A DNA stretch of 64,000 bases from the IMG/VR virus record IMGVR_UViG_3300020045_003390, positions 15,312 to 79,311 of that record; one strand, written 5' to 3'. Under the pieces are notes generated by a model, which saw only the letters and a program-made list of their open reading frames with translations, searched no databases and was not told the origin of the DNA. Origin of the DNA: a virus (Duplodnaviria; Caudoviricetes). A program made the translations under genes and the position numbers. Shown here in pieces: positions 3,627-41,531 of this stretch. Each line of letters starts with the position of its first letter. The stretch's first letter is position 1.

Positions 3627-4118
3627 ATGATTTCTGTTGACGTATCAAAGGTACTAGAAGAATTAAAAGCATACCATCAGGATACTGTCCGCAGACTCGA
3701 AAATATGGTGAAGGGTTTCTCTTACATCATATCCAAGACTGCTATTGAGAACACTCCACTTGGTGATGCGGAAACATACTTCAAGTTGTACGAACTAAGG
3801 CAAGGTAGAACTGGACTTGAACCAACAGAAGGCTTTGCAAGAGGTTCTTGGCAAGTTAATACTTCTGGTCAGTTCAGTATGCAAGCCTTCTACGGTGCTA
3901 ACTCCGGTAGTGAAGCCCTTTCGTTAGTACAGTCTGATCTTGGTAGTTACAAACTTGGTGATACTGTCTTTGTTGGTAACAAAGGTTTCTACATCAAACA
4001 ACTTGAAAACAATTACAGTTCTCAGACGAACAATCTTGGTATCATGCAACCCACATTGGACAGCATCATGCAAACATACCAAGTTGATCTTGTCAGATTA
4101 TTTAATGAAACCTCTTAA
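3627..4118 (+). CDS. Neck / tail completion protein (HK97 gp10-like)
   Basis: TPLGD...GFARGSWQV...VFVGNKGFYIKQLE pattern; synteny. Confidence 0.6.
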   Translation: MISVDVSKVLEELKAYHQDTVRRLENMVKGFSYIISKTAIENTPLGDAETYFKLYELRQGRTGLEPTEGFARGSWQVNTSGQFSMQAFYGANSGSEALSLVQSDLGSYKLGDTVFVGNKGFYIKQLENNYSSQTNNLGIMQPTLDSIMQTYQVDLVRLFNETS

Positions 4119-4138
4119 CAAAAATTAACTTTTAAACA

Positions 4139-4216
4139 TTGGATAGGCTGATCCCCGAAAAGACGATTCATCACCGTCCTGCCAATTGTTCTTTGTGATG
4201 CATTTTCTTGATGAGG
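4139..4216 (+). ncRNA. Putative structured cis-regulatory RNA leader of homing endonuclease 1
   Basis: Stem TTGG(A)TAG/CTGCCAA encloses a small hairpin, GAAAAG and hairpin GACG/CGTC; its loop TCATCAC is complementary to downstream GTGATG and TGATGA(GG). Confidence 0.5.
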
Positions 4217-4227
4217 AAATAATAAAA

Positions 4228-5040
4228 ATGAAAAATGATTATTACGTGTATCTGCATAAGACTTTGGATGGTAAGGTGTTTTATGTGGGTAAAGGGAGAA
4301 ATAAGAGGGCTTGGCAGAAGTTTAATAGAGGTAGAGGGTGGACTGAAGTTTCTTCCAATGGATATTCTATTGAGATGTACGCTGGAAACTTATTTGAAAA
4401 AGATGCATTAGCTATTGAGCGCGGGTTAATTGAAACCCTCCCCAATCTGGTAAATATAAGAGCACTTAGTAGTGTAGAGTTTGATGATTATTCAGAATAT
4501 TTTGAATATGATTCAAACTCTCCTAGTGGGTTGACGCGAATCAAAGGTGTATTCACCGGAAGGTATGAACAAGGTAAACTTGGGCATTGTGGTTTAAAGG
4601 TAAAGCGTTCATGTGGTGGGCAACACTGGATGATCAAATTTAAAAACAGAAATACACAAATACATAGGATCATATGGCAACTAGTTAATGGGAAAATCCC
4701 TGAAGGTTACGTTGTCGATCATATTAATGGTGATTCTCTGAATAATAATATCTTAAATCTCAGGGTAGTGGAAAAAGTTAAAAACAGTCGAAACACAAGG
4801 AAACGTAAAAATAACACTAGTGGTGTAGTAGGGGTTACTTTAATTGTAAACATTAAAAGGAATTCTGCCATGTGGCAGGCATTCTTTAAGGACTTAAGTG
4901 GTAAACAAACTAGTAAATGTTTCTCAATTGCTAAACTTGGTTACGATGAAGCTTTCCGCTTAGCCTGTGAATGGCGTGTAGAACAAATCAGACTTCTAAA
5001 CGAACAAGGCGCGGGTTACACATCACGCCACGGAATATAA
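4228..5040 (+). CDS. Free-standing homing endonuclease (GIY-YIG-like N-terminus + HNH + AP2-like C-terminus)
   Basis: YYVYLHK...VFYVGKG; IHRIIW...VDHINGDSLNNNILNLR; NNTSGVVGV...FSIAKLGYDEAFRLACEWR. Confidence 0.85.
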   Translation: MKNDYYVYLHKTLDGKVFYVGKGRNKRAWQKFNRGRGWTEVSSNGYSIEMYAGNLFEKDALAIERGLIETLPNLVNIRALSSVEFDDYSEYFEYDSNSPSGLTRIKGVFTGRYEQGKLGHCGLKVKRSCGGQHWMIKFKNRNTQIHRIIWQLVNGKIPEGYVVDHINGDSLNNNILNLRVVEKVKNSRNTRKRKNNTSGVVGVTLIVNIKRNSAMWQAFFKDLSGKQTSKCFSIAKLGYDEAFRLACEWRVEQIRLLNEQGAGYTSRHGI

Positions 5041-5054
5041 TAAGAAGGGTAAGA

Positions 5055-5462
5055 ATGAGTATTATTATAGCCCAGACAGCAGTACGAAGAAGACTTGCCG
5101 CTCTTACCCCTTCCTTACCAACAGCGTTTGAGGGTATACCTTTTACAGCGCCTACAGGGATGTATCAAAGATTGCAGTTCGTGATTAGTCCTCCGACTGA
5201 TCCTACTTTTGGTACTTATTTCTACAGAGAGAATATTCAAGTTCAGATATTCGTAGCTGACAAACTTGACGTTGGAACCGCTGGAGCAATTGTTAGGGCA
5301 CAACTAATCAGAGATTGGTTTCACAAGGGTTTGACGTTAGAAGAAAGCGGAGTTCGTATGCATGTACTGAGAACTCCTCAAATCGCTGGTGCAACGGTTA
5401 CTAGTGATAGGATTATTGTTCCTGTACTTATCCCTCTTACTGTGGAAGTGTACAACCAATAA
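5055..5462 (+). CDS. Tail terminator protein (DUF4128-like)
   Basis: Just before the tail tube; QVQIF...GTAGAIVRAQLIRDWFHKGLTL pattern; ATG 5055 after AAGGG. Confidence 0.7.
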   Translation: MSIIIAQTAVRRRLAALTPSLPTAFEGIPFTAPTGMYQRLQFVISPPTDPTFGTYFYRENIQVQIFVADKLDVGTAGAIVRAQLIRDWFHKGLTLEESGVRMHVLRTPQIAGATVTSDRIIVPVLIPLTVEVYNQ

Positions 5463-6763: not shown

Positions 6764-6792
6764 TTGACATAATCTAAAACCTCTGTTATAAT
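6764..6792 (+). promoter_or_regulatory. Consensus sigma70 promoter
   Basis: TTGACA-17 nt-TATAAT with TG extension. Confidence 0.85.
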
Positions 6793-6850: not shown

Positions 6851-6879
6851 TTGTAAAAGCGGGGGATGTATGTTATAAT
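6851..6879 (+). promoter_or_regulatory. Second sigma70-like promoter
   Basis: TTGTAA-17 nt-TATAAT with TG extension. Confidence 0.7.
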
Positions 6880-8196: not shown

Positions 8197-8289
8197 TAAG
8201 AGAGCTACACAGGAGTAATTACCTTGTGGAAAAGCGTTAACCCTAGCCTGCTCGTCTTATTTTTCTTTAGGGTTGTTAAGTAAGGGTTT
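8197..8289 (+). ncRNA. Putative structured cis-regulatory RNA leader of homing endonuclease 2
   Basis: Stem TAAGA-GAGC/GCTC-G-TCTTA encloses hairpin CACAGG/CCTTGTG, GAAAAG and AACCCTA, which is complementary to downstream TAGGGTT and AAGGGTT. Confidence 0.5.
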
Positions 8290-8292
8290 GAT

Positions 8293-9120
8293 ATGAATAA
8301 TAAATACTATGTGTATGTGCACAAGATTGCAGATACTGGTGAAGTGTTCTATGTTGGTAGCGGAACTGGGAACCGGTGGCGCACCAGCAGCAATCGATCT
8401 GAATTATGGCACGAATCTAGCGCAAATGGCTTCGCACCGGAAAAAGTTTGGTGCGACTTGACGGTAAACGCAGCAAGAGAAGTTGAAGAACTGCTGATTG
8501 AACTTATTGGTATAGACAATCTAGTTAACAAACACCTCCCAATGAAAACTATTGTGCTAGACAATTCAGTATTGAAGCAGTTTATTTACTCTGAAGATAG
8601 TCCTAGTGGTCTAGTTTGGGCAGTTGATCAACACAGGGGCATAAATATACACAGTATTGGTGACGTTGCTGGGGGAAAAGAGTCTAGGAATAATCAACCT
8701 CACAGGTGGAGGGTGAAGCCATCAGGTACAAATCAATCTGTAGCTATTCACCGGATTGTATGGGCACTCCATTCCCCTATTTCAGAGGATAAGGTGATTG
8801 ACCACATTGATGGTAATCCTTGGAATAATAGAATTGAAAACTTACGAGAAGTTGATAGAGCAACGAACTCTCGAAATACAAAGAAGCATACCAGTAATCG
8901 TTCAGGTGTCGCTGGTGTGCATTTTAAAAGAAATAGGGATGGGCATACTTATTGGTCTGCTACGTGGAGGGACGTTGACCAAAAGTCACGTAGCAAGAGT
9001 TATATGATAGAGAAATATGGAAATGATGAAGCCTTCAAACTAGCTTGTGATTTTCGTAAGAATAAAATAGAAGAATTAAAAGCAAGAGGATTTGGGTACA
9101 CAGATCGACACATTGCTTAA
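8293..9120 (+). CDS. Free-standing homing endonuclease (GIY-YIG-like + HNH + AP2-like), paralog of 4228-5040
   Basis: YYVYVHK...VFYVGSG; IHRIVW...IDHIDGNPWNNRIENLR; SNRSGVAGV...YGNDEAFKLACDFR. Confidence 0.85.
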   Translation: MNNKYYVYVHKIADTGEVFYVGSGTGNRWRTSSNRSELWHESSANGFAPEKVWCDLTVNAAREVEELLIELIGIDNLVNKHLPMKTIVLDNSVLKQFIYSEDSPSGLVWAVDQHRGINIHSIGDVAGGKESRNNQPHRWRVKPSGTNQSVAIHRIVWALHSPISEDKVIDHIDGNPWNNRIENLREVDRATNSRNTKKHTSNRSGVAGVHFKRNRDGHTYWSATWRDVDQKSRSKSYMIEKYGNDEAFKLACDFRKNKIEELKARGFGYTDRHIA

Positions 9121-37534: not shown

Positions 37535-37609
37535 TGGTGCAACAGAGTTGATTCGAACAACTGACCAAGAAATTATGAGTTTCCAGCTCTTCCACTGAGC
37601 TACTGTTGC
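37535..37609 (-). tRNA. tRNA with CAT anticodon (Ile2-like rather than initiator; elongator Met not excluded)
   Basis: GCAACAG/CTGTTGC, GGAAA-CT CAT AA-TTTCT with G27.U43, variable loop TGGTC, TTCGAAT, CCA; extended -10 TGCTATAAT at about 37619-37627. Confidence 0.9.
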
Positions 37610-40979: not shown

Positions 40980-41531
40980 TTATTTTCCGTGGCGTTCAGT
41001 GTAGTCAGCACCTTCACTAACTAACTTAAGAATCATATCATCCCTGAGTTTTGAGGCCAGTTCAAACGCTTTCTCAGTGCCATATTTATTACAAGAAAAA
41101 CTTCTAAGTTTCAACTTCCCACACTTATCAACCCAACAAGCACACCATGCGTTGTGGTTTGCTGAGTACGAAACCCCGACTTTACCTGATGAGTTACGTT
41201 TGGTTATCCCCACATTCTTTGAGTTATCAGGTGCTGGCTTTAGCTTTAAGTTTGAAATGCGATTGTCAAACGGTATGCCATTAAGATGATCCACAATCAT
41301 ACCCTCTATAATTTTGGCATTAAACATTTCCCAAATTACTACATGAACTTGGTATCCACTCCCGTCGACTACTACCCGCCAGTAACTAGGTTTTCCTTTT
41401 CTCTTGTACTGACAGCCAACACGATCACCACTCCTGTGTAAAAACTGCCCCCAATTTCCCTTTTTAGAATTTTTCCAAATCAGACAAGATGGGGACGATT
41501 CGTCATAAATAAAATAATCACTCCAATTCAT
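40980..41531 (-). CDS. HNH endonuclease with AP2-like C-terminus
   Basis: VHVVIW...VDHLNG...NRISNL; NSSGKVGV...KYGTEKAFELA. Confidence 0.85.
   Translation of the reverse strand: MNWSDYFIYDESSPSCLIWKNSKKGNWGQFLHRSGDRVGCQYKRKGKPSYWRVVVDGSGYQVHVVIWEMFNAKIIEGMIVDHLNGIPFDNRISNLKLKPAPDNSKNVGITKRNSSGKVGVSYSANHNAWCACWVDKCGKLKLRSFSCNKYGTEKAFELASKLRDDMILKLVSEGADYTERHGK

Follow-up and report, generated by a model that had tools for sequence, protein, structure and literature searches.

Free-standing homing endonucleases need low expression that does not disturb the operons they have invaded. The endonuclease genes I-TevI, I-TevII, I-TevIII and segB of T4 and mobE of Aeh1 are controlled by RNA structures that sequester the ribosome-binding site (RBS) (Edgell, Gibb and Belfort 2010, PMC2988022), a precedent which the original prediction for the locus described here, made from the sequence alone, had correctly named. 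Our subject is a leader RNA in a window of 64,000 nucleotides (nt), bases 15312-79311 of a 79.3-kb uncultured phage contig (IMGVR_UViG_3300020045_003390) whose nearest phage at the protein level is Curvibacter phage P26059A. The leader (4136-4227 in the numbering of the window) precedes a homing endonuclease gene that we call HE1 (4228-5040), and a second copy (8198-8292) precedes the paralogous gene HE2 (8293-9120); both leaders and both genes are on the plus strand. On homology, we assign the two leaders to the catalogued Rfam family int-alpA (RF02996), as divergent members of it and not as a new family. We further consider it rather probable that the leader is a cis-acting translational throttle or switch, set between a decoy box and a box at the Shine-Dalgarno (SD) sequence.

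The leader RNA and the int-alpA family

All the elements listed for the HE1 leader in the original prediction were found in place. The closing helix P1 pairs AUUGG (4138-4142) with CCAAU (4182-4186), and the homologous columns covary in the alignment of 31 leaders described below. The 5' strand of P1 is followed by a junction strand (4143-4145) made up of an A and an invariant UA (4144-4145); most relatives have a C at position 4143, paired with the G of the CUG strand, and the RF02996 consensus has C-UA. At the P1a position stands GG-CUGAUCC-CC (4146-4156), within a 20-base core that is invariant in 31 of 31 aligned leaders, followed by the junction strand GAAAA (4157-4161), which is invariant in the alignment and in RF02996. 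Hairpin P2 (4162-4178) consists of the stem GACG/CGUC (4162-4165 and 4175-4178), whose inner pairs covary, and the 9-nt loop AUUCAUCAC (4166-4174). The CUG junction strand and the 3' strand of P1 (together 4179-4186, with CU at 4179-4180) complete the core, and the U-rich linker UGUUCUUU (4187-4194) separates P1 from the first of two boxes complementary to the P2 loop.

A closing stem and a small hairpin had both been predicted for this region, and both are present, but G4146 cannot serve the two at once. The stem, which may be lengthened by a UAG/CUG extension, and the hairpin of 2 base pairs (bp) are mutually exclusive at this base, and both local readings of the junction fit equally well, as the bases concerned never vary. 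P1a of HE1 amounts to at most the GG/CC pairs, and these are constant in the alignment, so that no covariation signal is possible there; in HE2, in Curvibacter phage P26059A and in the Rfam consensus P1a is a true hairpin. The invariant P1a loop UGAUCC (4150-4155) would be complementary to GGAUCA, directly 5' of the anti-SD sequence of 16S rRNA; the wider int-alpA family is without this loop. GACGAUU (4162-4168) is able to pair with AAUUGUU (4184-4190), in competition with both P2 and P1, and similar alternative pairings occur in L006, L008 and L017, possibly by chance given the tolerance for G·U pairs.

Homologs carry the case for the structure. Relatives of HE1 in viral contigs (L006-L009, 38-60% identity) have the same leader, as does the Curvibacter phage, and in all of these the helices and the loop-box pairs are altered in step. 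A scan of viral contigs with the 15-base core TGATCCCCGAAAAGA gave 119 stretches; roughly half were chance matches in coding DNA and were discarded. The scan yielded 56 distinct leader sequences with a shared plan, namely P1, C or A, UAGG(C/U)UGAUCCCCGAAAAGA, P2, CUG and P1'. The 20-base core is also present in 13 bacterial species, apparently in prophages, with hosts that include Enterobacter, Serratia, several Acinetobacter, Panacagrimonas, Acidithiobacillus, Micavibrio, Rhodospirillales and an Acidobacteria metagenome-assembled genome. Across 31 aligned leaders, 88.5% of the cells assigned to helices are paired; in shuffles the figure is 67.7%, and with slid partners it does not exceed 52.5%. 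The covariation score is 0.538 as against 0.150 in shuffles, none of 500 shuffles scoring as high. Both-sided changes affect seven P1 pairs and two P2 pairs. P2 is paired in 99.2% of cases, and column pair 30-46 reads CG in 12 leaders, AU in 8, UA in 8 and GC in 3, without a single unpaired case. G·U pairs are found on the coding strand only, which argues for an RNA and not a DNA element. The structured junction RNA with pseudoknot-type pairing from loop to tail that had been predicted is thus borne out, in that both the helices and the loop-box complementarity covary.

The same architecture, in a different sequence, had been predicted in front of the paralog at 8293, and all of its elements were located there. 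P1 of the HE2 leader core (8202-8253) pairs GAGC (8202-8205) with GCUC (8250-8253) and encloses UA (8206-8207), a real 6-bp P1a hairpin (CACAGG/CUUGUG, 8208-8228), the junction strand GAAAA (8229-8233), a P2 of 2 bp (GC/GC) with the 10-nt loop GUUAACCCUA (8236-8245), and CU (8248-8249), which closes the junction. In a 79%-identical relative (L148), a G·U pair of P1a is replaced by A-U.

RF02996 independently matches both places. The HE1 leader aligns with the family end to end (26.2 bits, E = 1.2e-3 in E-value mode, 241-nt search), and over the whole 79-kb genome the model gives exactly two matches, HE1 at this score and HE2 (8198-8272) at 22.8 bits. Both copies are under the gathering threshold of 35.8 bits, and Rfam, run with these thresholds on the whole window, matches a tRNA and nothing else. 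Scores above 35.8 bits are reached by five leaders that share the 20-base core (L047, 47.5; L070, 45.2; L037, 37.1; L009, 36.6; L073, 36.4), and L009 heads an endonuclease 38% identical to HE1. We base the membership of the window copies on homology to these passing members and not on their own scores, and we regard the RNA as int-alpA, neither new nor particular to an endonuclease family. A second model (R1), built from copies containing the 15-base core, matched the Curvibacter phage leader at 38.1 bits; a search with R1 under default filters did not recover the HE2 leader.

The likeness to int-alpA extends over P1, UA, GAAAA, the P2 hairpin, CU, P1' and the U-rich tail; at P1a, where the family has a hairpin of about 4 bp, HE2 has one of 6 bp and HE1 at most the two GG/CC pairs. 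Both window leaders have the closing helix P1 around a three-way junction, the junction strands UA, GAAAA and CU(G), and a P2 of the int-alpA type, with 4 bp in HE1 and 2 bp in HE2. They differ from the family in that P1a of HE1 is cut down to an invariant motif, and in that the loop-box pairings and the position in a 5' untranslated region (UTR) appear neither in the structure line of cmscan nor in the Rfam typing as a small RNA (sRNA). The int-alpA motif is reportedly one of the candidates of Weinberg et al. 2017, named after nearby integrase and alpA genes. The window copies differ in this respect as well, since they adjoin phage structural genes and endonucleases: the genes near the leaders include those for the tail terminator, tail tube and tape-measure proteins, and neither int nor alpA is among the neighbors. 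The main text of Weinberg et al. 2017 (PMC5737381) does not mention int-alpA, and our literature search found no functional study of the family.

The P2 loop and its two complementary boxes

About 20 distinct P2 loop sequences occur in the family, each with its exact complement a few U-rich bases past P1 (CAUCAC:GUGAUG, CUCCAC:GUGGAG, CGCUAG:CUAGCG, CCUUUG:CAAAGG, UAUUCAC:GUGAAUA, AACCCUA:UAGGGUU and many more). The linker between P1 and this complement, box 1, has a median length of 7 nt family-wide and is 59% U and 6% G. Box 1 of HE1 is GUGAUG (4195-4200), the candidate decoy or pseudoknot partner of CAUCAC in the loop (6 bp, -6.3 kcal/mol). Box 2 of HE1, UGAUGAG (4209-4215), overlaps the SD motif GAGG (4213-4216), in agreement with the original prediction, and can form 7 bp with UUCAUCA of the loop (-6.9 kcal/mol). 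In the HE2 leader, box 1 is UAGGGUU (8268-8274), complementary over 7 bp to AACCCUA of the loop, for which duplexfold gives 8 pairs and -9.8 kcal/mol. Box 2 of HE2, AGGGUU (8283-8288), is inside the SD AAGGG and complementary over 6 bp to AACCCU, with a longer bulged helix of -8.3 kcal/mol as the duplexfold optimum. The two pairings are thus nearly isoenergetic in each leader.

Duplex energies of own and swapped partners were computed on 43 representatives. The mean for loop and box 1 was -9.76 kcal/mol for own and -5.78 kcal/mol for swapped partners (p ≤ 1e-4), and that for loop and box 2, with box 1 masked, was -6.96 as against -4.85 kcal/mol (p ≤ 1e-4); these p values treat as independent representatives that are phylogenetically related. 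Co-variation of the loop is weaker with box 2 than with box 1. In most cases 2-12 nt separate the end of the best box 2 pairing from the start codon, so that the pairing falls at the SD or next to it.

An elaborated form of the leader is found on AntA/AntB antirepressor genes of Acinetobacter prophages (L020, L021, L035, L136, L140 and similar copies), where P2 is enlarged and contains the inner hairpin GUCGUUUCGAC. A loop helix of about 13 bp, UCGACUAUUCAUU with AAUGAGUAGUCGG, can be drawn by hand in these leaders, a slightly extended version of which has -17.5 kcal/mol in duplexfold; in competition with the inner hairpin, the helix stretches as far as the GG of the SD. Placed before an antirepressor gene, such a leader could influence the choice between lysis and lysogeny. 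Complete E. coli genomes lack the Acinetobacter-type leader, and among named phages it has one partial match, in an AntB gene of an Acinetobacter phage.

Proposed translational control and competing explanations

As judged from sequence comparison, the fold, the family membership by homology, the covariation of both pairings and the position before open reading frames (ORFs) in an inserted cassette hold for this leader, and an SD with a same-strand ORF start lies 25-60 nt past P1 in 52 of 55 copies. In the mechanism that we propose, a small three-way junction, with a variable closing helix P1 and hairpins P1a and P2 joined by near-invariant UA, GAAAA and CU(G), is located in the 5' UTR of a mobile cassette, here one for a GIY-YIG-like/HNH/AP2 homing endonuclease. 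The P2 loop would pair either with decoy box 1, a few U-rich bases past P1, or with box 2 on or beside the SD, each pairing excluding the other. Because the loop pairings are mutually exclusive and one of them is on the SD, the leader would act in cis on translation initiation, and the share of time during which the loop occupies box 2 would set how often ribosomes load. This balance could be fixed, making the leader a throttle, or a factor that recognizes the conserved junction could tip it, making the leader a switch. An effect of the pairing on translation, its direction and any trigger are inferred, and the earlier suggestion of a limit on a toxic nuclease is sensible but not proven.

Several observations weigh against translational control. 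The HE1 leader has a minimum free energy of -15 kcal/mol, a value that 161 of 200 shuffles equal or better (z = +0.85), so that this single copy does not distinguish its fold from chance and the comparison of homologs decides. Moreover, the consensus three-way junction of HE1 comes to -4.7 to -6.0 kcal/mol compared with -9.2 kcal/mol for a rival nested fold. Family-wide, the decoy pairing is on average stronger than the SD pairing and nearer to the loop; therefore, the resting state may be SD-open, and the net effect could be small, perhaps even protective. About eight leaders form a clade (loop ACUAUCCAC, SD GGGAGAA) that nearly lacks box 2, and the combination of pyrimidine-rich loops with purine-rich SD regions makes the box 2 signal partly compositional, to which is added the relatedness of the 43 representatives. 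Finally, RF02996 is typed 'Gene; sRNA' in Rfam, and P1 with the U-rich tract behind it looks like a terminator, the RF02996 consensus having seven U past P1.

The last two points are what a trans-acting or terminated sRNA would lead one to expect: transcription would end at P1 and the U tract, and an RNA of about 65 nt would act through its P2 loop, or the element would be an attenuator. Such an RNA would fit the sigma-70-like promoters of about a third of the copies, which stop 5-20 nt short of P1 (a match of at least 9/12 in 35% of copies, compared with 3.6% of background windows), as well as the U-richness of the linker and at least one bacterial copy (L146) without an obvious ORF behind it. 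We nevertheless find this explanation quite unlikely, as P1 is short (5 bp, AUUGG/CCAAU, in HE1) and closes a junction instead of forming a simple GC hairpin, a terminator scan of 4139-4200 was negative, GC-rich copies are without the U tract, and HE1 has no promoter of its own. Furthermore, the loop has its targets 10-45 nt away in the same transcript, and the two copies of one genome have different targets, which points to cis action. An intrinsic terminator for the HE1 copy was rejected on the same empty scan. If the element acted as DNA, as a conserved site of recombination or homing at the borders of cassettes, this would account for an identical 20-mer at the 5' border of many different cassettes; such a role is extremely improbable, in view of compensatory changes that preserve helices of wholly different sequence, and a DNA-level repeat was rejected on the strand-specific G·U pairs and the fixed orientation to the downstream ORF. 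A self-cleaving ribozyme (hammerhead, twister, pistol or hatchet) was likewise rejected, as no ribozyme family matched in 4060-4300 up to E = 10; CUGAUCC...GAAA is without the stem II and the G8/A9 of a hammerhead core.

Two further explanations accept a structured leader and differ over what it does. The junction-pseudoknot might guard the 5' end of the transcript, or shield the RBS from the upstream sequence of each new landing site, with little regulatory role for the SD complementarity. The element does move with mobile cassettes into many contexts and is often at a predicted transcript 5' end, and the stronger decoy pairing would keep the SD open; yet such an insulating role, which we regard as very unlikely, leaves unexplained both the co-variation of box 2 with the loop after masking of box 1 and the retention of an SD-complementary loop. 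Alternatively, the invariant junction, UAGGCUGAUCCCCGAAAAGA in this subfamily, may be the binding site of a small molecule, or of a conserved factor from host or phage, whose binding decides between decoy and SD. The 20-base core is identical across very different hosts and dozens of phage contigs, while the surrounding helices vary freely, and a switch would be built from just such a pair of alternative helices of almost equal energy. However, the wider family (HE2, the Curvibacter phage and the Rfam consensus) keeps only UA, GAAAA and CU(G), which is little sequence for a binding pocket, with an ordinary variable hairpin as P1a; known riboswitch classes are unmatched, and no candidate ligand or protein emerged. 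We consider a sensor of this kind unlikely. In its most general form, which we also think rather improbable, int-alpA would be not an sRNA but a portable bistable translational switch carried by selfish phage genes (homing endonucleases and antirepressors), with the invariant junction sensing a universal cellular signal (a metabolite, the ribosome or a host factor) and timing or limiting their expression; the complementarity of the P1a loop to 16S rRNA would be one possible lead.

Returning to cis-acting translational control by decoy and SD boxes: if it is correct, one leader RNA would serve as a general, transferable control module for unrelated nucleases and antirepressors in phages that infect many Proteobacteria. 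An orphan Rfam family now filed as an sRNA would also gain a function. The design, in which a decoy is set against the SD, may be of use as a compact expression throttle.

The inserted cassette, its neighbors and known systems

The HE1 leader begins 21 nt past the stop codon of the upstream gene, a structural gene of 163 amino acids (aa; 3627-4118). This gene and the one that follows HE1 (5055-5462) have their homologs in genes 0018 and 0019 of Curvibacter phage P26059A, which are 11 nt apart there. Because the flanks are adjacent in that phage, leader and HE1 together (4119-5054, plus strand) form an inserted cassette read from the late operon. Neither a promoter nor a terminator was found directly before the HE1 leader (the best promoter match is 6/12), and some other copies directly follow a terminator. 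Homologous leader-endonuclease units in other phages are located after the capsid gene. At the DNA level, the region of the leader and HE1 matched no named phage in near or distant mode. The tail-terminator ORF as listed (4971-5462) overlaps HE1 by 70 nt, and it is homologous to Curvibacter phage gene 0019 from residue 29 onward; its true start is probably the ATG at 5055, 14 nt past the HE1 stop.

HE1, which starts with the AUG at 4228, encodes 270 aa with a weak GIY-YIG-like N-terminus, for which all GIY-YIG matches are sub-threshold, an HNH_3 domain (Pfam, E = 1.9e-17) and an AP2 domain (E = 5e-07, under the AP2 cut-off). HE2 encodes 275 aa with HNH_3 and AP2 and is 40% identical to HE1 (E = 2e-52). 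Most ORFs behind leader copies encode nucleases of HNH or GIY-YIG-like type. HNH_3 occurs in 16 of 35 distinct proteins downstream of leader copies; other cargo includes AP2, T5orf172/MUG113 (GIY-YIG superfamily), zf-His_Me_endon, NUMOD3, HNH and HNH_5, together with AntA antirepressors (in Acinetobacter prophages), DUF1376 and proteins without a known family, and some of the bacterial copies are in prophage regions. The proposal that the RNA travels with the endonuclease gene is upheld, but the RNA is not specific to endonucleases, given the antirepressors, DUF1376 and unrelated ORFs.

A third HNH homolog (40986-41531, minus strand) is 37% identical to residues 87-269 of HE1 and begins 3 nt past the stop codon of the preceding ORF. 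No leader RNA was found in front of it; thus, not all endonucleases of this phage have the RNA. Outside the window, an HNH-like gene near the terminase (G000:C1, about 8970-9100; locus L147, 170-300) is preceded by a hairpin and AAAAG, with a loop complementary to downstream sites and then a long hairpin covering the SD. This leader has no match to RF02996 up to E = 5; it may be no relative at all, or one that has diverged much further. Another contig with a copy of the leader (L040, 252-1149) has a cluster of seven tRNA genes beside an endonuclease-like gene. In the window itself, an ORF-free gap of the tail operon contains a perfect TTGACA-17-TATAAT promoter (6764-6792) and a second strong promoter (6851-6879), and a tRNA gene (64.7 bits) is at 37538-37609 on the minus strand.

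Among known regulators, the expression platforms of cobalamin, SAM-II and preQ1-II riboswitches use a pseudoknot or kissing contact between a loop and the RBS. The HE1 leader resembles them in having an aptamer-like core upstream and a long-range pairing that would decide access to the SD. It differs in that it matches no riboswitch family and in that the conserved core is very small in the wider int-alpA family.

In the hairpins of T-even endonuclease genes, as proposed here, a leader RNA structure of a phage homing endonuclease pairs with the RBS, and the promoter-less seg and mob cassettes of T4 resemble the HE1 cassette inside its host operon (PMC2988022). Membership of the HE1 leader in the T4-type RBS hairpins was ruled out, as the partner of its SD is a distant loop and the structure contains no promoter; the functional analogy stands. 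The T-even hairpins are simple and lineage-specific, belong to no common sequence family and are relieved by a late promoter inside the hairpin (PMC2988022). In contrast, the leaders of HE1 and of int-alpA have a conserved junction RNA and a decoy box that are common to unrelated nuclease families and hosts, and their whole structure lies downstream of any promoter.

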